This document shows positions 7,569-63,148 of a stretch of 64,000 bases of DNA, piece after piece. The DNA is from a virus, in the IMG/VR virus record IMGVR_UViG_3300032144_000003, positions 1 to 64,000 of that record. One strand, 5' to 3'. The notes below the pieces were generated by a model. That model was not told the DNA's origin and searched no databases. It saw nothing but the letters and a program-made list of their open reading frames with translations. A program made the translations under genes and the position numbers. Each line of letters opens with the position of its first letter. Positions within the stretch are counted from its first letter, which is position 1.

Positions 7569-8204
7569 ATGGCAGTGCAAAGCACGACGTTGGCCGGGAT
7601 TCTGGAGATTCCAGCCGCCTCACTGACGGACGCGCACCTCTCTGGTAATGCCAACATCTCGCGCACCAAGCAGGCCCTCAACTCACAGGACTATTTCGGC
7701 ATCCCGGTGCATCTCTGGCGACAGGTGGCCGCTGGTCATCCTGTGCTGGGGACGGCGGGGTCCACGAATCTGGGGGTCGGGACTGCCGCAGCCGGGGCCA
7801 CCGGAGTAGATGTGCGCACATCCCCATCGAACGGGACGACGATCACCCAGACGGCGATGTTTGAGTTTTATTTGCCGCCGGAATATGCCGCGACGACGAA
7901 CATCTACGCCTCATTCTGGGCGGCGATGAACGTCATCTCGTCGGCGTCCTGCACACTGGACATCACCGCGTACAAGGTGGGGACGGATGGGGCGCACGGA
8001 TCGGACCTGAACTCGACATCCGCCATCGATATCCGCACGGTTACGTATGCCGAGCGAGTCTTCACGATCGACGGTTCCGGACTGTCGCCGGGAGACAAGC
8101 TGGAAATCTACGTGACGGTGGCCGCGACGGACGGCGGCGGCGCAGGGACCGACAAGTACGCCAAGATTGTCAAGACCGGCGTCAAATGTGATTGCCGGGG
8201 ATAA
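7569..8204 (+). CDS. hypothetical structural protein
   Basis: 211-aa ORF between the tube and chaperone genes. Confidence 0.4.
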   Translation: MAVQSTTLAGILEIPAASLTDAHLSGNANISRTKQALNSQDYFGIPVHLWRQVAAGHPVLGTAGSTNLGVGTAAAGATGVDVRTSPSNGTTITQTAMFEFYLPPEYAATTNIYASFWAAMNVISSASCTLDITAYKVGTDGAHGSDLNSTSAIDIRTVTYAERVFTIDGSGLSPGDKLEIYVTVAATDGGGAGTDKYAKIVKTGVKCDCRG

Positions 8205-8240
8205 GCACGGTTTTCAGTTCTCAGGAGCGACACGCACGCA

Positions 8241-8627
8241 ATGCCCATTCATCTGTTTATCGAGGACGGTCAGGTCTACGACGGCTGCATTTCCAATGTG
8301 CAGGGCCATCCGCTGACGCCGCCGCTGACGTTCAAGTTTCGGCCCGCCGACTACATGGACCTCAACCGGCACTATGACGCCGTGGCCAAAGATGAGGCGT
8401 TGGGCAAGCTGCCGGAGAGCGAGAAGGACGCGGCGGCGAATCTGAGACTGATTGCCGAGCGACTCCAGTCATGGAGCGCCGCCGGGCCTCTGAACGTGGA
8501 CCGTCTCCGCAGGCTGAATCCATTCGTGGCGTCACGTCTGTACCGGATCGTGATTGGCAACGATGCGAGCGATCCACTGCCGGACGGAACGACGCCTGAG
8601 ACGCCGGAGAACGCCGCAAAAAACTGA
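8241..8627 (+). CDS. tail assembly chaperone (gpG analogue)
   Basis: It lies immediately upstream of the tape measure and ends ...GCA AAA AAC TGA, with a slippery heptamer in the last codons. Confidence 0.6.
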   Translation: MPIHLFIEDGQVYDGCISNVQGHPLTPPLTFKFRPADYMDLNRHYDAVAKDEALGKLPESEKDAAANLRLIAERLQSWSAAGPLNVDRLRRLNPFVASRLYRIVIGNDASDPLPDGTTPETPENAAKN

Positions 8628-9031
8628 TCCTGGGGGTGGAACTGTTGCAGCTTCATCCCGAGGTCTACCGCCGCGACTGCTCACTGTGCCTGAAGTATGC
8701 GTGGGATGAAGAGAAGGGAGTGATGAACAAGGATGGACGGGGGAATCCGATTGAAAGGCCCCCCCTGACGTACGCTCCGTGCCGCAAGCCGAAGGGGAGC
8801 GAGTGCCCCAAGGGTTGCCCGGAAAAGCCCAACACGCTGACCAACCGCAGCCGGATGTTGTGGCGACGGTTTCAGGAGTGCAAGTTGACCGGACGCTGGC
8901 CGGAGGATCACTGGACGATTGCCTTGTACGCACAACTGGACGACCTCGTCAGGCGGTGCGATGAGATCAAGGCCAGCCGGTCGAGGACGGCGGAGATGCA
9001 GATCATCCTGGCGTCGGTCATTGGAAGATGA
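8241..9031 (+). CDS. tail assembly chaperone G-T fusion made by -1 programmed frameshift
   Basis: The -1 frame is open across the G stop. After a slip at A_AAA_AAC it reads K-K-L-I-L-G-V-E-L-L-Q..., joining the 8636-9031 ORF. This matches the conserved dsDNA-phage G/GT arrangement. Confidence 0.55.
8618..8624 (+). other. -1 ribosomal frameshift slippery heptamer A_AAA_AAC
   Basis: X_XXY_YYZ in the zero frame of the chaperone gene, 1 nt before its stop. The downstream ORF is in the -1 frame. Confidence 0.6.
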
Positions 9032-9263
9032 GTTGCCAGAAGTAGACCACGAGAAACCCCACACACCCCCAACCGATCATGTTCACCAGCGTTCTGAGTT
9101 CCTTGGCTTCTGCTGAGACGGGCGGTTCGGCGGGCTTTGATGACGACCCGTATTTCTTGTTGTGCCAGTAAGCGATGCCAGCGAACAGGCCACCAAAAGC
9201 AACCACAACCATGACAAGCACTGCAATGCCTTGATCGATGCCTTGTTGGTCTGCACCTTCCAT
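9018..9263 (-). CDS. small two-TM membrane protein (antisense moron between chaperone and tape measure)
   Basis: ATG (rc) at 9263 lies 8 nt after GGGAGA. Two hydrophobic spans are present (IAVLVMVVVAFGGLFAGIAYW; MIGWGCVGFLVVYFWQLIF). It fills an otherwise non-coding 250-bp gap. Confidence 0.5.
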   Translation of the reverse strand: MEGADQQGIDQGIAVLVMVVVAFGGLFAGIAYWHNKKYGSSSKPAEPPVSAEAKELRTLVNMIGWGCVGFLVVYFWQLIFQ

Positions 9264-9280
9264 TTTGAGAGTCTCCCGCG

Positions 9281-11308
9281 ATGGCAATTGAACGTGATGT
9301 AGTCATCACCCTGAAGCTGAAAAGCGACACGGCTGCCGCTGGCCAGTTCCGCAAAGAGATTCAGTCTGCCTATGGAGCGGCAGCAAAAGCAAGCGCACAG
9401 GCCGATAAGGGGACGGACGCGGTGAGCAAGCGCATCTCCAAGATGGAGAAGGACGCGACGAAGCTGGAGAAAGACCTCGACCGTATTCGGATCAATCGGG
9501 AAAAGAAAGAGGCGGCTGCGGCGCAGGCGGAAGAACGGCAATTGCAGCGGGTATTCGCGAACCGCATGAAGCTGTTGGACCGGATCGAGAAAGAGCGTCA
9601 GCAGAAACTGAAGCAGCAGGAGCGGGACGATGCCGCTGCGGCAAAATCTTGGGAGAAGCAGCAAAAGGATGCCGAGAAGAGTGCAACGCAGTCGATGAAG
9701 GCAATTGAGAAAGCGCAGCGGGATCGTGAAGCCGCGACCGCGCGGGCTGACGCCACGCATCAGCAGGCGACTGGCAAACTCCAGGCCGCGAACCAGAAGG
9801 TTATCACGTCCACCAGAGAAGCTGGTGAAGGCTTCCTGCGAATGGCCAGGGGACTGGCGATTCTCGGCATCTCCGGGGAAGAGAATCTGGCGATCTTCGC
9901 CAAGCACTTCGTGATGATCCAGGCCGGGTTCGACGTGTTCTCCGGCGGCCTCAAGGTGATCCTGAGCGTCAAGGACGCCTACGTGGCCCTGGCATCAGCG
10001 CAGAAGGCCGCAGCCATTGCCGGGGCGGCAGCGGCAGCGGCGGGGCTGGGTGGTGGCGCGGCGGGCGGCGCAGCCAGAGCGGGCGGGTCGATGCTGGGTA
10101 ACTTCGGAGCGGGAGCCGCCGGGGCTGGGGCGGCCACGTGGGGAGGTCGTCTGGCGGGAATGGCGTCTGGGGCTGGCGCTGGCCTTAAAGCCGCTGCCAC
10201 GGGAACCTTGGGGCTGGCGGGAGCAGGCTACGCCATCGGCTCATCGGTCAATCAGGTCACGGGCCGCATGGGCATGCCGAATATCGGTAACGCCATTTGG
10301 AAAGATCGCGGCGGCTCAAGTAACTCTGAACGCTTTGACGTCGCATTCATTTCAATGATCAAAGCCAAGTTCTTCGATCTCGCCAAAAGTGCGGACGCCG
10401 TGAAGGCCGCCGAACAAAAGCGGCTGGTGGTGATCGAAGCCGTGCGTCAGGCTGAACTGCAAATGGTCAATCTGCGGGGTCAGACGCAGGCCGGTCTGGA
10501 GAGCATCGCGTCACGGCGTGACCGGGCGCTGGGGCTGAGTGATGGAGAAGCGTCGGGCCGGGCGCGAGGCAGGCTGGCGTCGGCATTGGAGCGGGAAGAA
10601 GCCGCGATGGCCAACGCCCGGCGGGACAACCCCGATGCGATCCTGGCGCATCAGCAGAACATTCTGTCAATCAAGGAACAGATTGCCCAGGTGGATGAGT
10701 CGGCGGCGGAATCCGCCAAGCGCACCAAAGAGGAACTGACGCAGCAGCTTGACCGCGCCAATCAACTGTTGCAGGCCAGCCGGGAACGCATCCGGGCTGA
10801 AGAGGCGGGAGCCAAGTCCAATCTAGCGAAGTTCGGCGAACTCGACATCACGCAACAGCAGTCCCTGCGGAAGATCAGCGAGAAGCTGCAGTCAGGCGGC
10901 AAGCTCAATCAACCGGAAGCGGACATTCTGAAGAACAGCGGTTTGGGCGGTCGCTTTGCCGAAGACTTCTATGCCGACAAGGGCCGCGCCGCGGGTGGGG
11001 AAAATGTCCTGCGCGGGCTGGGAGAGATGGACGCTCTCGAAGCCGCCCGGCGTGACGAAGCCGAGAAGGTGGCCGAAGTCGCCCGGCTCCGGGTCGAAGA
11101 ACAGCAGGCGATTGAGCGGCACACGGAGACGACGAATCGGCTGGTGGAATCGCTGGGCCGCTTGGAAGCGGTGTTTCAGGAACTGGCCCGGTTGCAGGAA
11201 CAGCAGATCAACCGCCAGCGGGATCAGACGATCAACCCCGTTCAGGCTACGGCGGGAGCGCTGCAAGGTGGCGCGCGTCAGACGGGCATTCAACAGGTCT
11301 GGGAGTAA
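9281..11308 (+). CDS. tail tape measure protein
   Basis: 675 aa with long coiled-coil segments and a Gly/Ala-rich hydrophobic core (AAAAAGLGGGAAGGAARAGG...). It follows the G/GT chaperone. Confidence 0.8.
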   Translation: MAIERDVVITLKLKSDTAAAGQFRKEIQSAYGAAAKASAQADKGTDAVSKRISKMEKDATKLEKDLDRIRINREKKEAAAAQAEERQLQRVFANRMKLLDRIEKERQQKLKQQERDDAAAAKSWEKQQKDAEKSATQSMKAIEKAQRDREAATARADATHQQATGKLQAANQKVITSTREAGEGFLRMARGLAILGISGEENLAIFAKHFVMIQAGFDVFSGGLKVILSVKDAYVALASAQKAAAIAGAAAAAAGLGGGAAGGAARAGGSMLGNFGAGAAGAGAATWGGRLAGMASGAGAGLKAAATGTLGLAGAGYAIGSSVNQVTGRMGMPNIGNAIWKDRGGSSNSERFDVAFISMIKAKFFDLAKSADAVKAAEQKRLVVIEAVRQAELQMVNLRGQTQAGLESIASRRDRALGLSDGEASGRARGRLASALEREEAAMANARRDNPDAILAHQQNILSIKEQIAQVDESAAESAKRTKEELTQQLDRANQLLQASRERIRAEEAGAKSNLAKFGELDITQQQSLRKISEKLQSGGKLNQPEADILKNSGLGGRFAEDFYADKGRAAGGENVLRGLGEMDALEAARRDEAEKVAEVARLRVEEQQAIERHTETTNRLVESLGRLEAVFQELARLQEQQINRQRDQTINPVQATAGALQGGARQTGIQQVWE

Positions 11309-45664: not shown

Positions 45665-45951
45665 AGGGCGACATTCTGGAGATCATCGTCAGCGTCGGGG
45701 ACAAGGAACTGCGGATGGGCGCAATGATGCCGGACGATACGCCACTGGATGCGGTGTTCGGGTGCATCAAGGGGGCTGTGGCCGCGACGCTCGGCACGCC
45801 GCTGGAGACTGAGGATGAGGCGGAAGAACGGCAGGTCATCGCGGGCGATTTTCTCAAGCGACTTCGCTGTGCCATCGGGGAGATTTCCCAGGATGACTGG
45901 CGAGTCAATGATGAGCATGTTGCCACGCCAGCACCGGAGTCTGACGCATGA
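45661..45951 (+). CDS. hypothetical protein
   Basis: ATGA-coupled, 96 aa. Confidence 0.35.
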   Translation: MKGDILEIIVSVGDKELRMGAMMPDDTPLDAVFGCIKGAVAATLGTPLETEDEAEERQVIAGDFLKRLRCAIGEISQDDWRVNDEHVATPAPESDA

Positions 45952-47129
45952 CCCCCACCCTACTCACCACTGCCCCCGCCGGTTCCCCGGACTGGCTCGC
46001 CGCCCGTCGGACTGGGATCGGTGCCAGCGAATGCGCCGCCGCCTGTACCGGCTGGTACGGCACGGGGGACAACGCCGTCTATCGGCAGTTCGATCCCCGC
46101 CGCCAGCCGCGCGACCTGTACCACCTGCTGCGGGGCGAGATCGAACCGACCGAGGACAACGACTACATGGCCTGGGGCCGGTTCATGGAGCCGTCCGTGG
46201 TGCAGTTCTACGAATGGAAGCACGGCGTCAAGCTCCAGTACCCGCTGGGAGTCTATCAGCATCCGCAGTATGACTGGATGGTCGCGTCGCCAGATGCCGC
46301 GTTTGATAACCGGCGGGGCATGGAGATCAAGCACACGGGATACCAGAAGATCAAGGCCATCGAGGAATGCGGGCTGGATGCCGTCGTGCCGGAGTACGTT
46401 CTGCAATGCACGCATCAGATGGCTGTCATGGGATGGGAGTCCGTGGAACTGGTGTTCCTGGCCGAACGGCAGTTGTATCCGTTCACGATTGAGCGGAACG
46501 AGCGGCTGATTGACCTGATTATTGAGCGGGAGTCGGAGTTCTGGAGTAGAGTGGAGCGGGGTGATCCCCCGCCCATCCAGCCGGAGCATGAGAACGTATC
46601 CGTCTCATTGCGGCACGCCTACCCAGAGATGGAGTCCCATGCGGTTCGGCTGTCGCCGGTGGCCGTGGCGGCATGGCGCGAGGCGCAGACCCTGAAAGAG
46701 CAGATTGCCGCCCTGGAGCGTCGCCGGGGCCGGTCTGAGGCAATTGTCGCTGCCGAGATTGGAGCAGCGTCAGCGGGCATTCTGGGGGACGGACGGGCCG
46801 TCAGGCGGAAGATCAACCGGGAATCGGTCAGCCTGCGGGAAACGAGTGACGCTGGGTTGTCTGTGGTCGATTCGGCGGACGGACCGCAGGAACGGCTGGA
46901 AACGCTGCGGCGATACTTGTCACAGCACGGATTCATGGGGACCAGCACGACTCCGGACCGGGCGGAATTCGTCCACGTGCGGAGCGGGCAGCGGGTCGCG
47001 GCGCTGCTGGCCGGGGAGCATGAGAACGGAGCGTTGGAAAAATCTGGAGAAACTTTGATCCACTTGGGATCATCCAGCGTTCATCCATTAGACGCGGCGA
47101 AACTGATTCTCGACACGATGGGAGTGTGA
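45948..47129 (+). CDS. YqaJ-type (lambda Exo-like) recombination exonuclease with C-terminal extension
   Basis: SPDWLAARRTGIGASECAAA..., MAWGRFMEPSVVQFYE..., ASPDAAF...GMEIKH (PD-(D/E)xK). Confidence 0.7.
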   Translation: MTPTLLTTAPAGSPDWLAARRTGIGASECAAACTGWYGTGDNAVYRQFDPRRQPRDLYHLLRGEIEPTEDNDYMAWGRFMEPSVVQFYEWKHGVKLQYPLGVYQHPQYDWMVASPDAAFDNRRGMEIKHTGYQKIKAIEECGLDAVVPEYVLQCTHQMAVMGWESVELVFLAERQLYPFTIERNERLIDLIIERESEFWSRVERGDPPPIQPEHENVSVSLRHAYPEMESHAVRLSPVAVAAWREAQTLKEQIAALERRRGRSEAIVAAEIGAASAGILGDGRAVRRKINRESVSLRETSDAGLSVVDSADGPQERLETLRRYLSQHGFMGTSTTPDRAEFVHVRSGQRVAALLAGEHENGALEKSGETLIHLGSSSVHPLDAAKLILDTMGV

Positions 47130-47132
47130 GCG

Positions 47133-47630
47133 ATGGGGCTGGATATCACGGCATACGGCAAGCTGATCCCAATTCCCGGAGAGCGTGTCGGCGATTGGAT
47201 CGCAGAGGCGCGCGACGTGGTTATTCTGACGCAGAAAATCAACACATCATCTGTGTTCCCAGGTCGAACCGAGGGGCTGGAGCCTCCGGGGACGTATTGG
47301 TGGCGCGCGGCTAGAAAGTTCAAGGCAGGCAGTTACACCGGATACAGAGAGTGGCGGCATTCGCTGTCCTTGTTGGCTGGATACAAGTCTCTGGAAGACT
47401 GCTGGGAGAACCATACCAGCGGTCCATTCTGGGAACTGATCAACTTCACGGACAGTGATGGCGTCATCGGCCCGGTGGTCAGTCGCAAGCTGCTCGCAGA
47501 TTTTCTGGAATATCGACCGAAGCTGGATGCGTGCGAACACCCCGACAAGGAGTGGTTCGCGGAACTGTACGACGAATGGCAGCGGGCATTTGAGGTGGGC
47601 TCTGATAGCGGCGCGGTGGTGTTTCACTAA
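47133..47630 (+). CDS. hypothetical protein
   Basis: 165-aa ORF. Confidence 0.4.
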   Translation: MGLDITAYGKLIPIPGERVGDWIAEARDVVILTQKINTSSVFPGRTEGLEPPGTYWWRAARKFKAGSYTGYREWRHSLSLLAGYKSLEDCWENHTSGPFWELINFTDSDGVIGPVVSRKLLADFLEYRPKLDACEHPDKEWFAELYDEWQRAFEVGSDSGAVVFH

Positions 47631-47652
47631 ACCATGAGAACGGAGCGGAGCA

Positions 47653-47775
47653 ATGACGGAACTCTTGGCGTTGAATCACGCAATCCTGGGCCTGCTGTCG
47701 TTTGGCGGCGGCGTGGCCATCGGTCTGACACTGGCGATTGTCTGCGGACACTTGCTTCTGGATGAGGATGGGTGA
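47653..47775 (+). CDS. possible 40-aa single-TM peptide (below ORF-track cutoff)
   Basis: Read by hand: MTELLALNHAILGLLSFGGGVAIGLTLAIVCGHLLLDEDG. Confidence 0.25.
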   Translation: MTELLALNHAILGLLSFGGGVAIGLTLAIVCGHLLLDEDG

Positions 47776-47779
47776 TGAC

Positions 47780-48076
47780 ATGACAGACACGATCAACGAT
47801 TGCGACGAAGTGGAACCAGACGTTCAGCAGCGAGCGGACACGCTGATGGCGACCATGCGAGTGATTGTCACGAACATCGAGGGCGTCGCTGGTCCTCAAG
47901 CCGCTCGCGACTACCTGTGCGGAGTCATCCGCCGCATGACACGCTGTCCGGGCTGCGAGCGAATGGAGGTCGCCCTTGGCGGATGGCTCGGATCAGTGGA
48001 CGCAGACCGCCTGTTGAGACACATCGAATCCTATGCCATCGACGCGATGGATCGTGGAGGATACTTTGATACGTGA
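47780..48076 (+). CDS. hypothetical protein
   Basis: 98 aa. Other in-frame starts at 47738, 47762 and 47768. Confidence 0.35.
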   Translation: MTDTINDCDEVEPDVQQRADTLMATMRVIVTNIEGVAGPQAARDYLCGVIRRMTRCPGCERMEVALGGWLGSVDADRLLRHIESYAIDAMDRGGYFDT

Positions 48077-48085
48077 GAAGCGAAC

Positions 48086-49018
48086 ATGAAAAAGAAAACA
48101 ATTAAAACTGTTATCGCGAAGAAGATGAGTGAATGGTGGAAGACGATCGACGATCCGCGAGTGCAGGAGTTGGCGGCCTCATCGACGATTGTTACCGGCG
48201 GGTGCATTGCAAGCATGCTGCTGCGAGAGCGGGTAAACGACTACGATATTTATCTGCGCACAAAAGAGGCGGCCAAAGCGCTCGCTGAATACTACGTGAA
48301 GAGATTCGAAATCAAGGACAAGGAAGGAATCCCTTGTGGGATCTACGTGCACGACGAGAACGATAGAGTCAAAATCGTCGTGAAGTCGGCTGGAATTGCC
48401 AGCGAAAATGGCACGGCCCGTCCCTACGAGTATTTCGAGTCTTCGGAAGAGGGGCAGGCGGGTGAGTATGTGCATGAAGTGATGCAGGACCCTGGGGCAA
48501 TCCAAGATGCAGCCGACGCGATTAAAGATACTGAGGTGGCCGATGACGGACTGCCGTATCGCCCCGTGTTCCTGTCCACGAATGCCATCACGCTCTCCAA
48601 GGGCGTTCAAATTGTGATCCGGTTCTACGGGGAACCGGATGAAATCCACAAGAACTATGACTTTGTGCATTGCACGAATTACTGGACAAGCTGGGACGGC
48701 GAGTTGGTGCTCAGGCAGCCTGCGCTCGAATCTCTACTATCCAAAGAGTTGCAATACGTGGGCAGTAAGTATCCGATCTGTTCGTTGTTTCGGCTGCGGA
48801 AGTTTATTAAGCGGAATTGGACCGTTAATGCTGGCCAGATTTTGAAAATTGCATTGCAGGTCAGCGAGTTGGACTTGAAGGACCACAACGTACTGGAAGA
48901 TCAACTGATCGGGGTTGACGTGGCTTATTTCATCGAGGTGGTCAACAAGGTGAGAGAGCATGACCCAGAGAAGGTGAATGCTGCGTATCTTGTGGAAATA
49001 CTTGATCGAATGTTTTAG
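48086..49018 (+). CDS. hypothetical protein with Pol-beta-type nucleotidyltransferase-like N-terminal motif, lower GC than neighbours
   Basis: IVTGGCIASMLLRERVNDYDIYL resembles GGxVRDxLLxxxxxDxD of CCA-adding and poly(A) polymerase heads. The gene looks visibly more AT-rich. Confidence 0.35.
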   Translation: MKKKTIKTVIAKKMSEWWKTIDDPRVQELAASSTIVTGGCIASMLLRERVNDYDIYLRTKEAAKALAEYYVKRFEIKDKEGIPCGIYVHDENDRVKIVVKSAGIASENGTARPYEYFESSEEGQAGEYVHEVMQDPGAIQDAADAIKDTEVADDGLPYRPVFLSTNAITLSKGVQIVIRFYGEPDEIHKNYDFVHCTNYWTSWDGELVLRQPALESLLSKELQYVGSKYPICSLFRLRKFIKRNWTVNAGQILKIALQVSELDLKDHNVLEDQLIGVDVAYFIEVVNKVREHDPEKVNAAYLVEILDRMF

Positions 49019-49579
49019 GCCCGCCGGTGCCAGAAACCGGCCACGTGCCTGCCCGTGTCACGAGAGAAGACGGCCACTCATCTGAGAGACAGGCAAAAAT
49101 CCCCCTGTGTGAGGTGAGCAGGAATCGAGCGACCGAAGCCCAATGGCAGGGCGGGCAGTCCTGAAGGGTCATCCGCAGTCGGCACGCTGGTCGTCGCCGT
49201 GCCATCCAACGGGAGACTGAGATGTAGACCTGACGAGAGTGTGAAGGAATGAGACCGGACTACAGCAGGGATAGACCTGCCGTGGGGAACCCGCAAGAAA
49301 GTTCCACGTAAAAGCACCGTTGCGGGCTGGCGGATGATGAATCCGCCAGAACATGGATCGGCGGCGTGGACAAGTGACACGCAGGCAACTGTCCTCGGCT
49401 CACACTGGGGGCAGCTACTTGAGGCGGCGAGCCGGGAGTGATGGGCGTTCAGGAGCAGTGCTCGACACTGACGAAGAACCCGATAACCGGGCCGAAATAA
49501 TTCACCGCGAATGACCTCAGCAGGTGCAAGTCCTGTCCGATCCACTGGACGTCAACAACCCCCAACAAGGAGTCAAAGC
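49019..49579 (+). ncRNA. long non-coding gap with multiple stable hairpins (candidate structured RNA or cis element)
   Basis: No + strand ORF of 60 aa or more. The - strand ORFs are Arg/Ser/Leu-rich shadow ORFs. Hairpins at 49023-41, 49181-203 and 49327-49 (9-bp stem). Confidence 0.3.
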
Positions 49580-51787
49580 ATGGCCACTGAAATCGCACAA
49601 CCTGGCACTGAACGTCGCCCGCAAGCCAATCTCCCGTCCATTCGCCCGGAACGTCTTCCATACCACCCTGCATTGCAGGAGAAGTTCAACATCGGGAGAT
49701 CAGAATGGCGGGCATTGGTCGAGGCCGTATTTCCTCTGGCACAGTCTATCGATTCGGTGATCCTGGCACTGTCGTACTGCAAGGCCCGCCGGTTGGACCC
49801 TTTCAAGCGAGTCGTGCACATCGTGCCGATCTGGGATTCCAAGCAGCGGTGCACTGTGGACACGATCTGGCCTGGCATCGGAGAACTGAGAACGACTGCC
49901 ATGCGGACGAAAGAGTACGCCGGACGCGACAAAACGGAGTTCGGTCCGGATGTCACGCGGCGGGTCGGCACGCTGGAAATCACATTTCCTGAGTGGGCAC
50001 AGGTCACGGTGTATCGGATGGTGAACGGGCAGCGAGTGGCGTTCGCTGGTCCGCAGGTGTACTGGCTGGAGACGTACGCAGAGCGGGGCGGCAAAGACCA
50101 CGACAGGACTCCCAACAGCATGTGGGCGAAGCGAACGCGGGGGCAACTCGACAAATGCTTTGATGAGCACACCGAGGTACTAACAACCGAAGGATTCCAG
50201 AGATTTTCGGAAGTGACCGGACTGATTATGCAGGTCACGGACCACGGCCTAGAGCCAACCAACGCCGTTCCGTTCGCTCGCGAATACGACGGCCCGATGG
50301 TGACATGCGACGGAAACGTGCTGAACTTCAGTGTCACGCCGAATCACGACATGGTCACCACGAATGGAAAGGTAGAGGCGGCAGAAGTTGTCGCCAAAAG
50401 CACAAGCACCGGGGGATTCGATATCCCGCTGGTAATTGATGGGTCTGGCCCGGACGCCAACTTTACTGACAGGCAGATCATGGTGGCCGCAGCACTCGCC
50501 TGCGATGGGTATCGACATGGAGGTGAACTGTGCATTGCCGTCAGCAGGAAGCGGAAGGTTCAATTCCTTCGGCAGATTGGAATGCACAAGTCAATGCACG
50601 TGCGGCAGTGTGCTGGGGAGGACACAGTCTCGTCATCAGGGCGGGTCATCACAACGACGGCCAATAAGATGGTGTTCGGCTACCGCAGGGACGTTGCTGG
50701 TGATTTATTGATTGAAGGAACGAAGCTGCTCGACAGCGCGCAGGTGGTTCGCCTGAGCAGACGACAGGCAAGGCTGCTTGTTGATTCAATGCTCCAGTGT
50801 GATGGGCACGAATCCCGAACGGCCAGACGATTCTTTGCCTCGTCGCGGTCGATCCTGGCCGCCTTCGAGGTTGCAGCCTGCGTTGCGGGGTACGCGATCA
50901 GTTACCGACGAGTACGGAAATCTGACATTGGCGGCAAGAACTACTACGTGACGGTGAGCACAAAGACGACGGCCCGTACCATGAGAGCAAGTCGTAGCCA
51001 ATCCAGGCTGAAAGGTGGTCTACGGCACACGCTCAATGAGTCAGGCATTGTCTGGTGCTGCACGGTGCCGACTGGACAAATCGTCGTGCGACGTAAAGGG
51101 CTGTCGATGATCTGCGGCAATTGCGCCGAGGCCGCCGCCCTGCGAGCGGCTTTCCCAGAAGAGATCGGAAACGAGTACATCGCAGAAGAGGCGCATGCGC
51201 CGTCCGGATCAGAGGCGAGACAGGTACAGTCCATCGTCAAGGTGTCCGGAGCATCGGCCACGGAGAACCTTGCACAAATGATGCAGGGTGAAGCCAGAGA
51301 AGAGTCCCAGGTTGACCAAGAGGCAGTAGGACCGCATGATCCGGATGTCAACGCCGACGAACCCCTCGAATCCGCCGACGTTCTGGAGATCATCAGCGAC
51401 CCGCCCGCGGACCAGACGCAGTCCAGCCAGCCTCAAACGGACGAACCAGCGGCGGAAACGAAGCCCGCCCGCAAGCCCGCCAAGCAGCAGAAAACACTGA
51501 CGGATGCGCCGCCGCAAACGCAGTCCGCCAGTCCGCCACCTGTCGATCCCCGCGAATGGGCGAAGTACGGCAGTGTCGGAACGGACAACCCGCAGCGGTA
51601 CTGCAACCGAATCAAGATTGCCGTCGGCAAAGCCAAGACTGCCGAGCATCTGGCAATTCTCAACGAGGCGCTGAACACCGCCTGTCAGGTCGGAGATGTG
51701 ACGGCGGAGCACGCGGACCCCGTGTACGCCGCCATCGACGCCGCCCATGCTGGTCTGGAAATGGAATCGTCCCAGGCCGCGTCCTGA
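49580..51787 (+). CDS. recT: RecT-family single-strand annealing protein interrupted by an intein
   Basis: AAGGAG precedes ATG 49580. RecT-like CKARRLDPFKRVVHIVPIWD ... NSMWAKRTRGQLDK / CAEAAALRAAFPEE flanks a 322-aa insert. Confidence 0.8.
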   Translation: MATEIAQPGTERRPQANLPSIRPERLPYHPALQEKFNIGRSEWRALVEAVFPLAQSIDSVILALSYCKARRLDPFKRVVHIVPIWDSKQRCTVDTIWPGIGELRTTAMRTKEYAGRDKTEFGPDVTRRVGTLEITFPEWAQVTVYRMVNGQRVAFAGPQVYWLETYAERGGKDHDRTPNSMWAKRTRGQLDKCFDEHTEVLTTEGFQRFSEVTGLIMQVTDHGLEPTNAVPFAREYDGPMVTCDGNVLNFSVTPNHDMVTTNGKVEAAEVVAKSTSTGGFDIPLVIDGSGPDANFTDRQIMVAAALACDGYRHGGELCIAVSRKRKVQFLRQIGMHKSMHVRQCAGEDTVSSSGRVITTTANKMVFGYRRDVAGDLLIEGTKLLDSAQVVRLSRRQARLLVDSMLQCDGHESRTARRFFASSRSILAAFEVAACVAGYAISYRRVRKSDIGGKNYYVTVSTKTTARTMRASRSQSRLKGGLRHTLNESGIVWCCTVPTGQIVVRRKGLSMICGNCAEAAALRAAFPEEIGNEYIAEEAHAPSGSEARQVQSIVKVSGASATENLAQMMQGEAREESQVDQEAVGPHDPDVNADEPLESADVLEIISDPPADQTQSSQPQTDEPAAETKPARKPAKQQKTLTDAPPQTQSASPPPVDPREWAKYGSVGTDNPQRYCNRIKIAVGKAKTAEHLAILNEALNTACQVGDVTAEHADPVYAAIDAAHAGLEMESSQAAS
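50156..51121 (+). mobile_element. intein with LAGLIDADG-type homing endonuclease domain
   Basis: Block A CFDEHTEVLTTEG, block B VTPNHDMVT, two LAGLIDADG-like motifs (IMVAAALACDGY; LLVDSMLQCDGH), blocks F/G VWCCTVPTGQIVVRRKGLSMICGN followed by +1 Cys. Confidence 0.75.
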
Positions 51788-61224: not shown

Positions 61225-61704
61225 ATGACAGAATCAGCCATGCCGATGGATCAGATTGGGGGGCAAGGGGGAGCCAATATGCTCCCCGCTTCGATTTCTC
61301 CCGGTGGTCAGACCAGCGACACTCGCCTGCTGGCGCGAGCGATCAAAGAGCGCTGGCCGATGACAGATGCTCTTCGCAAAGCGGTCGTCTCGTGCCTGTC
61401 TCGCATCATTCTGGATAGCGGCCTAGCTCCCCGTGAACGTGTCTCCGCCGCGAAAGCCTTGTTGCTCGCAGACAGAATCAATCTTGCCGAACAACAAGGC
61501 CCTGCCAAAGAACAACACAGCCACTTGCATTTGCATGGAAATCCTGACTCAATCCGATCGTCTCTGGCTGCACTCTCGGATCGCTACGGACTTTCAGGCA
61601 GTTCAGGAGTGGATGGATCAGCAGGCCCCACGAACACGGACTTCGCTAATTCGTCAGTTGATAGCGGAATCGAATCCGGGGACGCCGGGCCTGAGTCTGC
61701 ATGA
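61225..61704 (+). CDS. putative terminase small subunit
   Basis: It lies directly upstream of and overlapping terL. Helical segment TRLLARAIKERWPMTDALRKAVV...RERVSAAKALLLADRINLAEQQ. Assignment is by position. Start is uncertain (61138 TTG / 61225 ATG). Confidence 0.4.
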   Translation: MTESAMPMDQIGGQGGANMLPASISPGGQTSDTRLLARAIKERWPMTDALRKAVVSCLSRIILDSGLAPRERVSAAKALLLADRINLAEQQGPAKEQHSHLHLHGNPDSIRSSLAALSDRYGLSGSSGVDGSAGPTNTDFANSSVDSGIESGDAGPESA

Positions 61705-63148
61705 ATTTTTAATTGGCATTTGGCCAACGCTGGAGCCAGCGCATCCGTTTAATGATTCGTGGCACGTCCGTGCGATCTGCGATCACGCGCAGGAATGTGT
61801 TATCGGGCACAGCTTCAAGAGGCTGCTTGTCAACATTCCACCGGGTATGTCGAAATCGCTGATTGCTTCGGTAGTGCTGCCGTGCTGGTCTTGGACGTTC
61901 CGACCGTGGTTCCGTTGGCTATGCGCGAGCTATGATCAGCCGACTGCGGACGATTTTTCGACGAAGCGCCGCAACGTTCTCTTGAGTGAATGGTATCGCG
62001 AGCGATGGCCGGAAGCGGCGAATCTCCAGACAACCAAAGAATCCAAAAAGCGGGACACGATCCGGCTGATTCAGAATGCAACCGGCGGGGAAATGTTGGC
62101 CACCTCACCGAAGGGGAGGGCGCTTGGAAAACACCCGATGGGGGTTGTAATAGACGATCCCCACAATCCCAAGGTTGACGAAGCATTGGGCGATGTGAGC
62201 CTACGTGATGTTCGTAACTGGATTGATGGCGTACTCTCGACTCGCGGCGTGGCGGTCGATGTTGATGTGCGACTGTTGCTTATCATGCAAAGACTGTCGG
62301 AAGATGATGCTTCGCAAGTCATGCTGAATTACGGCGACTGTGAGCACCTTTGCCTGCCGATGGAATACGATCCGGATCATCCTGTAAGAAACCCCAGGCA
62401 GCCGACTACGCTGGGATTCACCGATCCCCGAACGACGCGGGGAGAGCTACTTTGTCCGGAGCGGTTCCCGGCACATGTGGTCGATGGGATGCAACGCCGC
62501 CTGCGGTCGCGGGCTGCGGGCCAGCTACAGCAAATGCCCAAAGACCCCGAAGGAGATCGGTTCAAGCGAGCGTGGTTCACGACTGTGACGCGGGCTGCGT
62601 TACCCAAAGATATCAATCAAAAAGGCGTGGCCGTTCGTTATTGGGATAAGGCGGGAACTGAAGGTGGCGGTGACTGGACTGCCGGTGTGCTGTTAGTCCG
62701 GCACGAAGGACTGTACTACGTTGTCGATGTGGAGCGGGGGCAATGGTCAGCGGCCAATCGCAAAATGCACATGGAGAGAGTCGCGAAATACGATGCCGAG
62801 ATTTGGAAAAACTACACGATCTGGCAGGAGCAGGAGCCTGGTTCCGGTGGCAAAGAGTCTGCGGAAAATACAGTACGGGAGCTCTCCAGCTTCAGCGTTC
62901 GCACCGAGCGGGTCACAGGACCGAAGTCGGCCCGCTACAATAACTGGGAAGAAGAGCTTGATTCGACAACCAATACCCGCGTACCCACTGTACTGCTAGT
63001 GGACGCACACTGGAACCGGCCATTTATCGAAGAACATTGTGAGTGGCGCTGGGAAGACAAGAGTCCGACGGACGATCAGATTGACGCGGCAGCGGGAGCG
63101 TACATGAAACTGAAAAAGCAGCGTTCCTTTGTGGCGGCGTGCAGTTAA
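61535..63148 (+). CDS. terL: terminase large subunit
   Basis: FLIGIWPTLEPAHPFNDSWHVRAICDHAQE...RLLVNIPPGMSKSLIASV (Walker A-like), LLIMQRLSEDD, and C-terminal nuclease DDQIDAAAGAYM. Alternative start at 61613. Confidence 0.85.
   Translation: MEILTQSDRLWLHSRIATDFQAVQEWMDQQAPRTRTSLIRQLIAESNPGTPGLSLHEFLIGIWPTLEPAHPFNDSWHVRAICDHAQECVIGHSFKRLLVNIPPGMSKSLIASVVLPCWSWTFRPWFRWLCASYDQPTADDFSTKRRNVLLSEWYRERWPEAANLQTTKESKKRDTIRLIQNATGGEMLATSPKGRALGKHPMGVVIDDPHNPKVDEALGDVSLRDVRNWIDGVLSTRGVAVDVDVRLLLIMQRLSEDDASQVMLNYGDCEHLCLPMEYDPDHPVRNPRQPTTLGFTDPRTTRGELLCPERFPAHVVDGMQRRLRSRAAGQLQQMPKDPEGDRFKRAWFTTVTRAALPKDINQKGVAVRYWDKAGTEGGGDWTAGVLLVRHEGLYYVVDVERGQWSAANRKMHMERVAKYDAEIWKNYTIWQEQEPGSGGKESAENTVRELSSFSVRTERVTGPKSARYNNWEEELDSTTNTRVPTVLLVDAHWNRPFIEEHCEWRWEDKSPTDDQIDAAAGAYMKLKKQRSFVAACS

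Follow-up and report, generated by a model that had tools for sequence, protein, structure and literature searches.

A probable LAGLIDADG homing intein within the RecT/Redβ-family annealase gene of a tailed phage

What is the 322-codon insert that interrupts a gene for a RecT/Redβ-family single-strand annealing protein, or annealase, in IMG/VR virus record IMGVR_UViG_3300032144_000003, of which positions 1 to 64,000 (the window, 64,000 nucleotides long) were analysed here? An earlier note made from the sequence alone had proposed that recT is broken at positions 50156-51121 by a 322-amino acid (aa) LAGLIDADG intein, and this proposal has held up against a structure model, homology to inserts in the NrdA proteins of other phages, the conservation of the junction residues and a break in the DNA alignment with a syntenic phage contig (L001). 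We consider it very likely that the insert is a genuine, probably active homing intein of the class 1 type with a LAGLIDADG endonuclease that would splice itself out of the annealase and home into intein-less alleles. The observations behind this reading are the fold of the insert, its homology, its exact boundaries and conserved junction residues, the existence of an empty site and a distribution that is decoupled from that of the host protein.

All peptides quoted in the earlier note are found in place in an open reading frame (ORF) on the forward strand, 49511-51787. The insert within it comprises 966 nt, or 322 codons, in frame and free of stops; its product starts with CFDEHTEVLTTEG (CFDEHTEVLT...), includes VTPNHDMVT as well as IMVAAALACDGY (residues 108-119) and LLVDSMLQCDGH (residues 207-218), and ends with ...VVRRKGLSMICGN, directly followed by CAEAAALRAAFPEE. 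The annealase gene itself most likely starts at ATG 49580 rather than at 49511, since AAGGAG is found at 49567-49572 and the N-terminus then runs parallel to that of the intein-less homologue P0018. From this start the predicted precursor has 735 aa and 80.5 kDa (192 + 322 + 221 aa, with the intein at residues 193-514), and the predicted products are a spliced annealase of 413 aa and 45.4 kDa and a free intein of 35.2 kDa; after excision in silico, the joined exteins read ...GQLDK-CAEAAALR.... The parts of the gene are as follows:

49567..49572, forward strand: Shine-Dalgarno-like AAGGAG, 7 nt 5' of the likely ATG 49580; the N-terminus that follows, MATEIAQPGTERRPQANLPSIRPERLPYHP, parallels that of P0018
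49580..50155, forward strand: N-extein, the first 192 aa of the RecT/Redβ-family annealase, ending in ...NSMWAKRTRGQLDK; the RecT and bet_lambda profiles reach position 164 here
50156..51121, forward strand: probable intein of 322 aa and 35.2 kDa, a split Hint domain with an inserted LAGLIDADG domain, by its model, its fold matches and the DNA break relative to L001
50156..50419, forward strand: predicted N-terminal Hint half, residues 1-88, with the block A Cys1 codon at 50156-50158 and the block B TPNH at 50336-50347
50420..51013, forward strand: predicted LAGLIDADG endonuclease domain, about residues 89-286, with motif 1 IMVAAALACDGY at 50477-50512 and motif 2 LLVDSMLQCDGH at 50774-50809
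51014..51121, forward strand: predicted C-terminal Hint half, residues 287-322, with the block F VWC at 51050-51058, block G ...SMICGN and the Asn322 codon at 51119-51121
51122..51787, forward strand: C-extein of 221 aa plus stop, with the +1 Cys codon at 51122-51124 in CAEAAALRAAFPEE; the RecT and bet_lambda profiles continue here

The identity of the host protein becomes plain once the insert is taken out. With the insert present, Pfam RecT (PF03837) covers only profile positions 19-164 of 198 (E=4.8e-11) and NCBIfam bet_lambda (TIGR01913) falls into two separate stretches, whereas removing it gives one continuous RecT match over 19-190 (E=3e-17, 63.3 bits against a cut-off of 24) and a single bet_lambda match over 30-187 of 188 (E=1.9e-32, 112.7 bits against a cut-off of 76.95). 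The earlier note had likewise stated that excision leaves a RecT core of normal length. The spliced protein also matches the PHROGs annealase family phrog_2449 (E=2.4e-65), and a fold search with its model found significant matches in the PDB only to λ Redβ (7UJL, DNA-bound, E=1.4e-5) and Listeria phage RecT (7UB2, E=4.3e-3). By both profile and fold, the host is a RecT/Redβ single-strand annealing protein; within the Pfam family RecT, its NCBIfam match places it nearer to the λ Bet/Redβ branch. As a side observation, the C-extein (51122-51787) continues from the annealase core into a long low-complexity linker, acidic and rich in Pro and Gln, which is followed by a short C-terminal region that is helical, a layout to which that of P0018 looks similar when the sequences are read by eye and unaligned; the C-terminal domain of λ Redβ is where the exonuclease and SSB bind (PMC8303780).

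One line of evidence on what the insert is comes from its predicted structure. An AlphaFold model built from a 10-sequence alignment (predicted local distance difference test score, pLDDT, 89.7; predicted template modelling score, pTM, 0.88) has solved intein-LAGLIDADG homing endonucleases as all of its 16 best PDB matches, with E-values from 1.6e-11 to 3.9e-4 (7qsu as the best at E=1.6e-11, 7qst, 1vde, 1dq3 and 2cw7); the structures concerned are TliVMA (E=1.6e-11), PhoVMA, PI-SceI of yeast VMA1, PI-PfuI and PI-TkoII. Next after these inteins come the free-standing LAGLIDADG enzymes I-DmoI and I-SceI and the bI3 maturase, and the N-domain of WhiA is also among the matches. In the model, the N- and C-terminal parts of the insert are predicted to form a Hint fold together, and the segment between them shows the two alpha/beta repeats of a LAGLIDADG domain. 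The endonuclease domain has the architecture of two alpha-beta-beta-alpha-beta-beta-alpha repeats, each headed by a LAGLIDADG helix, with both catalytic aspartates intact: IMVAAALACDGY and LLVDSMLQCDGH each end in the metal-binding Asp-Gly that contains Asp117 and Asp216, respectively. Like the PI-SceI-type inteins, the insert consists of a split Hint domain that flanks a two-repeat LAGLIDADG endonuclease and has a Cys1 ... Asn | Cys/Ser/Thr junction, but it shares only 8-14% sequence identity with them and is compact at 322 aa. Several PI-SceI-type enzymes are larger and have an extra DNA-recognition region. Among the predicted viral structures of BFVD, 208 match the model at E<=1e-3, and the top ranks are taken by insert-bearing phage proteins (portal, polymerase, ribonucleotide reductase, terminase and methylase; query-length TM-score about 0.7).

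Remote homology in sequence points the same way. A translated search of 50,697 phage records returned no close relative of the insert and full-length matches at 23-25% identity, and the first 67 aa of the insert are 45% identical to stretches inside the nrdA genes of T5-like phages. The nearest sequence relatives in isolated phages are NrdA inserts that resemble it in size (about 305 aa) and two-domain layout, found in T5-like phages (Shigella phage SHSML-45 and Salmonella phages Shivani and SP3) and in Vibrio phage 424E50-1. They align with the insert end to end at 25-26% identity and E=1e-13 to 1e-16: residues 292-595 of SHSML-45 NrdA match at E=1e-16 and residues 152-459 of the Vibrio phage "hint domain protein", a ribonucleotide reductase large subunit, at E=1e-13. 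Common to the insert and these two are a C[FY]..TE[VI]LT start (with an optional Asp in the relatives at large, C[FY]..(D)TE[VI]LT), a Cys at position F:4 and a V.C...VVR..G...VCGN end. The only match in PHROGs, a weak one of insert residues 281-322, is likewise to a ribonucleotide reductase family (phrog_12229). The NrdA inserts differ from the insert in the window by their ribonucleotide reductase host, another insertion site and the low identity, and in the Vibrio phage by a Thr at +1; in the literature searched, we found no experimental characterisation of them.

The predicted splicing residues stand out from a diverged background. A word-indexed search returned 17 relatives of the insert, and a profile search run exhaustively over 1.84 billion cluster representatives returned 192 at E<=1e-30, 4,594 at E<=1e-10 and 11,374 at E<=1e-3; conservation was counted over 110 representatives of clusters at 50% identity in which both junctions were parsed. 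Intein block positions were assigned by mapping a Hint-only profile of the family onto hand-entered reference sequences of Npu DnaE, Ssp DnaB and Mxe GyrA, which gave Cys1 as A:1, Thr61 as B:7, His64 as B:10, Met66 as B:12, Cys301 as F:4, Cys320 as G:5, Gly321 as G:6 and Asn322 as G:7, with Cys301 opposite the block F Asp of the mini-inteins. The members are only 36-57% identical overall, and all 110 have Cys1, a Cys at F:4 and Asn or Gln as C-terminal residue. Lys precedes the insert in 106 of the 110, and the residue after it is Cys in 108 and Ser in the other two; TPNH of block B is found in about 100, VWC at block F in 107 and the terminal CGN in 99, and the Asp-Gly end is present in motif 1 of 106 and in motif 2 of at least 94. 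At the level of sequence, the insert carries what marks an intein, that is, a nucleophile at position 1, the Thr-x-x-His of block B, Asn (or Gln) as the last residue and a +1 Cys, Ser or Thr. Its hosts are annealases as well: Pfam RecT was detected in 70 of 71 scanned representatives, and the insert is present in more than 100 RecT clusters, without exception at one and the same position.

The boundaries are set independently by homologues that lack the insert. In L001, the annealase is 81% identical to that of the window and uninterrupted, and the DNA alignment of the two stops at 50158 and resumes at 51118; the joined flanks of the window match L001 at 44 of 60 nt, and the empty site of L001 reads CTAAAACGTCCGCGCGGACAACTAGCCAAG|TGCAGCGAGGCCGCCGCCCTGCGGGCCGCG. 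This empty site with a DNA break at the claimed boundaries argues against a chance origin of the insert. The 120 closest homologues of the host protein (55-81% identical, 287-429 aa) are without it as well and read K|C(A/S)EAAALRAAFPEE with no break, and P0018 likewise has an empty site. L001 and the joined flanks of the window define a candidate target of the endonuclease; a comparison with intein-less homologues to this end had been suggested in the earlier note.

The insert and its hosts have not simply travelled together. Over its first 100 aa, the insert retains 40-73% identity even where the N-exteins of the two hosts share 22-30% or cannot be aligned, and compared to P0001 the window has an insert that is 63% identical next to an N-extein that aligns at E=9.5. 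In the closest intein-bearing relative, L060, extein and intein are 66% and 56% identical, respectively; the two comparisons suggest, as far as sequence identities can tell, that vertical descent and lateral transfer are both at work. Four relatives (P0010, P0248, P0249 and P0246) have shorter inserts of 284-310 aa with partly deleted endonucleases; in P0010, which retains the Hint blocks, about 47 alignment columns are missing after the first LAGLIDADG motif, counted from its end. They appear to be decaying endonucleases, and such variants are expected from the homing cycle. Related loci in genomes and viral contigs have one intact ORF with the same junctions in all 29 cases that were parsed. 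Scans by exact patterns, whose counts are lower bounds, found relatives with a full-length identity of at least 37% at six loci in five of 185,579 species-representative genomes, namely those of Zavarzinia, Panacagrimonas, a proteobacterial metagenome-assembled genome (MAG), a Microcoleus MAG with two copies and the cultured Glutamicibacter creatinolyticus JCM 10102, as well as close relatives in about 27 IMG/VR contigs.

Some of these loci deserve a remark of their own. The two copies in Microcoleus sp. MAG WFFMC_MAG_631 (L008 and L009) are on two contigs, have identical junctions and encode inteins that are 39% and 37% identical to that of the window. The Glutamicibacter locus (L010; NZ_BAAAGL010000019.1, about 63-69 kb) has a 322-aa relative in a 701-aa RecT ORF, and its intein ends in VVGN|CAE, without the Cys at G:5. 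At positions 7710-9605 of L004, the N-terminal part of RecT is a separate ORF of 95 aa (7710-7997) followed by an intein-containing ORF of 534 aa (8001-9605), which could be due to a frameshift, a stop codon or a sequencing error. About 40 genomes of Halobacteria and Hadarchaeota (L016-L059) have matches, 25-37% identical, that are limited to the N-terminal 67-106 aa of the insert, and presumably contain other inteins with a related N-terminal Hint half. Finally, several proteins of 1,000-2,500 aa (among P0256-P0277) match the intein profile in three to six separate stretches and may be large proteins with several related inteins or cases of split matches.

The point of insertion would fit an intein as well. 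In the model of the spliced host fragment (pLDDT 80.8), the Lys|Cys junction falls in the middle of helix 163-179, which agrees with the remark in the earlier note that the sequence from Cys+1 resumes a conserved RecT helix. A weak, ungapped motif alignment, for which the λ Bet sequence was verified against 7UJL, pairs the Trp of SMW with Redβ W143, Lys-1 with H153, Cys+1 with K154 and the Arg of ALR with R161. This register fits the fact that one NCBIfam model matches both proteins as far as position 164; sequence searches with the host protein against the PDB returned nothing with either the single sequence or a 36-sequence profile, and the host profile aligned with λ Bet in the N-terminal part only. 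In the Redβ structure, W143, H153, K154 and R161 hydrogen-bond phosphates of the template strand (PMC9512822), and the K154A mutant has lost DNA binding in gel shifts and shows a 19-fold higher dissociation constant for single-stranded DNA (ssDNA) (PMC8303780). The helix that is restored by excision thus seems to be the counterpart of the H153/K154-R161 region with which λ Redβ contacts DNA. If the register holds, the intein splits the DNA-binding groove, so that the unspliced precursor should be, and going by the model probably is, inactive. A DNA-binding groove is the usual kind of place for an intein to reside.

From these features, the following course of events can be proposed. The gene would be translated as the 735-aa, 80.5-kDa precursor, in which Cys1 would attack the Lys(-1)-Cys1 peptide bond in an N-S acyl shift before the N-extein is transferred to Cys+1. 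Cyclisation of Asn322 would then release the intein, and rearrangement of the thioester to a peptide bond would yield the 413-aa annealase next to the free 35.2-kDa intein. The latter would act as a site-specific endonuclease on intein-less alleles at the conserved site ...AAR|TGC GCN GAR GCC GCC..., and recombinational repair would copy the intein into the alleles that have been cut.

Several points weigh against an active homing intein. Its splicing chemistry, DNA cleavage and homing are inferred, and no Hint, intein or LAGLIDADG model of Pfam or NCBIfam matches the insert significantly, an outcome that, taken literally, is among those that the earlier note had itself named as refuting its proposal. 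Ten insert relatives gave no significant Pfam intein match and LAGLIDADG_3 at best at E=0.032 in two of them, and among 71 relatives none matched an intein, Hint or LAGLIDADG model at E<=1e-3. Sequence searches of the PDB found no intein with either the insert or a 10-sequence profile; matches of the insert to betaine aldehyde dehydrogenase (E=0.0027) were dismissed as chance. The block mapping depends on hand-entered reference sequences and an alignment of modest significance (E=0.0016), the motif alignment behind the Redβ register has a score of 20, and the GC content of the insert differs little from that of the extein (56.4% compared to 61.7%). At the active site, the penultimate residue (G:6) is Gly and there is no conserved His after block F:4, so that both helper histidines of Asn cyclisation are missing, and F:4 is a Cys instead of the usual Asp. 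With the curated models silent, independent evidence was needed, and it is provided by structure, remote NrdA homology and the conservation of junction residues; the lack of a match reflects the limited sensitivity of the models and does not define the intein family.

The unusual active site bears on the class of the intein. The canonical pattern of class 1 is a penultimate His and, in most cases, an Asp at F:4 (InBase consensus; PMC4031507). Both are typical of the class without defining it, and the residues that do define it, Cys1, the +1 nucleophile and the C-terminal Asn, are present and invariant as judged from the alignment. In mycobacteriophage inteins, the penultimate His is poorly conserved and replaced by Gly, Lys or Ser (Kelley et al. 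2016, PMC5050341). Among these phage-borne class 1 inteins with LAGLIDADG domains, the one in gp51 of Bethlehem likewise has a penultimate Gly and adjoins an invariant functional motif of its host, which is a metallophosphoesterase-type recombination directionality factor and not an annealase; this Gly-Asn intein splices, and changing its Gly to His leads to accumulation of the precursor (PMC5050341). The Gly-Asn C-terminus that the earlier note had highlighted is thus real but ordinary for phage inteins, and calling it non-canonical gave it too much weight. More unusual is that the Cys at F:4 is invariant, that G:5 is a Cys as well and that block F is followed by no conserved His.

It is conceivable, though in our view unlikely, that the intein is a post-translational switch on phage recombination instead of a passive parasite. 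Its four conserved active-site cysteines (Cys1, Cys F:4, Cys G:5 and Cys+1) could gate splicing by redox state, by analogy to DnaBi1 of M. smegmatis where a block F cysteine has been shown to do so (PMC6195587). Alternatively, ssDNA binding by the split annealase could trigger splicing in the way that the RadA intein of Pyrococcus horikoshii is stimulated by ssDNA, the substrate of its host protein (PMC5238726). That intein and the one in RecA of M. tuberculosis resemble the intein of the window in that a homologous-recombination protein is interrupted at a critical site, but their hosts are cellular ATP-dependent strand-exchange ATPases whereas the phage annealase is ATP-independent and of an unrelated fold. 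If gating were true, the annealase would be active only under defined infection conditions, and if homing used the phage's own exonuclease-annealase pair, the intein would need its own excision in order to spread. A splicing mechanism intermediate between classes 1 and 3 could also be what the invariant Cys at F:4 and the loss of both assisting histidines indicate.

Outright class 3-like or hybrid splicing, in which Cys301 (F:4) and not Cys1 attacks the N-terminal junction and gives a branched intermediate at block F, or in which both routes are used, seems improbable to us. The Cys at F:4 is found in all 110 members and aligns with the class 3 nucleophile, the usual Asp at this position and both assisting histidines are absent, and class 3 inteins, such as those in DnaB of mycobacteriophage Bethlehem and DnaBi1, share the association with phages from which they have been proposed to originate (PMC4031507, PMC5050341). 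Their definition, however, is the absence of a nucleophile at position 1 together with Trp B:12, Cys F:4 and Thr G:5 (PMC5222942, PMC5050341), of which only Cys F:4 fits: Cys1 is invariant here, Met occupies B:12, and there is a Cys at G:5 (in 99 of the 110). Furthermore, +1 is Cys whereas it is mostly Ser or Thr in class 3 (PMC5222942), and Cys is the second most common F:4 residue across inteins overall (PMC4031507). We rejected class 3 membership since three signature positions fail and a Cys at F:4 is this common.

More doubtful still, and in our estimate very unlikely, is that the insert does not splice at all and is a degenerate intein or a domesticated Hint-endonuclease kept in the mature protein, which would make the gene a pseudogene or an annealase with an extra domain. 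That no curated intein model recognises the insert and that the canonical penultimate His is missing could be taken in this sense, as could its presence in more than 100 RecT clusters, given that RecT homologues with the same 322 aa as a conserved non-splicing domain were named as a refutation in the earlier note. The insert is indeed shared, but its sporadic distribution, decoupled from host phylogeny, and its invariant splicing residues argue for a mobile intein and not for such a domain. The four nucleophile and junction positions and block B are near-invariant over 110 clusters that have otherwise diverged, which points to selection on splicing; the insert breaks up a confidently modelled helix that apparently matches a part of λ Redβ in contact with DNA (PMC9512822); the nearest homologues of the host do without it; and the ORF is intact in the window as in all 29 parsed related loci. 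The last alternative, assembly chimerism or the fusion of two adjacent genes, has nothing beyond the modest GC difference in its favour and is effectively refuted, with a probability close to nil, by the same in-frame architecture and junctions in independent assemblies from NCBI, JGI, ENA and Logan, in 27 contigs of IMG/VR and at six loci of five GTDB genomes, one of them from the cultured Glutamicibacter strain.

Phage terminases, polymerases, helicases and ribonucleotide reductases are well-documented hosts of inteins, as are the cellular RecA and RadA, and an intein in phage DNA metabolism is not very surprising to a specialist. The element type, a homing intein, is familiar; what appears to be new is the host family, and the intein belongs to a sizeable lineage that current domain libraries miss. 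The earlier note had called an annealase an unusual host, and in the literature searched, which had most subscription journals as well as InBase and other intein databases outside its coverage, we found no published intein in RecT, Redβ or another annealase, so that this host family appears to be unreported; the table of the mycobacteriophage intein survey has no annealase host either (PMC5050341). Since Pfam and NCBIfam miss the lineage, intein-bearing genes end up labelled "recombinase RecT" or "hypothetical", and surveys of annealase length or domains will misread them. RecT/Redβ proteins are also mined as tools for recombineering, where an unrecognised intein alters what must be cloned and expressed. 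The apparent DNA-contacting insertion point and the cysteine-rich, histidine-poor active site make the intein a compact test case for DNA- or redox-responsive splicing, the role of a Cys at F:4 in an intein that retains Cys1 becomes testable, and the cultured G. creatinolyticus JCM 10102 is a tractable source of a relative. The host family, the annotation blind spot and this active site within an apparent DNA-contacting helix are what makes the locus worth a short follow-up.

The surroundings of the gene agree with its assignment. The window is from a tailed-phage genome with a terminase large subunit (61433-63148) and a neck protein (667-1860), and a six-frame search with a hidden Markov model found no further intein of the same family in it. 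An SbcC-like ATPase gene lies just downstream of the annealase gene, and the following gene about 2.4 kb upstream of it:

45948..47129, forward strand: YqaJ/RecE-like 5'-3' exonuclease (Pfam YqaJ, E=1.5e-24; phrog_434 RecE-like exonuclease, E=3.9e-56)

A YqaJ exonuclease is the expected partner of an annealase, and the pair is a classic two-component phage recombination module that is also found in L001 and L004. Between the two genes, a stretch of low GC content (47504-49017; 0.48-0.53 compared to about 0.60 around it) has no counterpart at the syntenic position of L001 though the L001 flanks align on both sides, and it looks like an inserted accessory gene. It contains a forward-strand ORF of 310 aa (48086-49018) that matches phrog_4400, a family of unknown function, at E=1.9e-68 and has no Pfam match. 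The ca. 560 nt directly upstream of the annealase gene (49019-49579) have no convincing ORF on the forward strand and a strong AT skew of 0.2-0.26; of these, only the first 200 nt can be aligned with L001, where two small genes are called in the matching interval.

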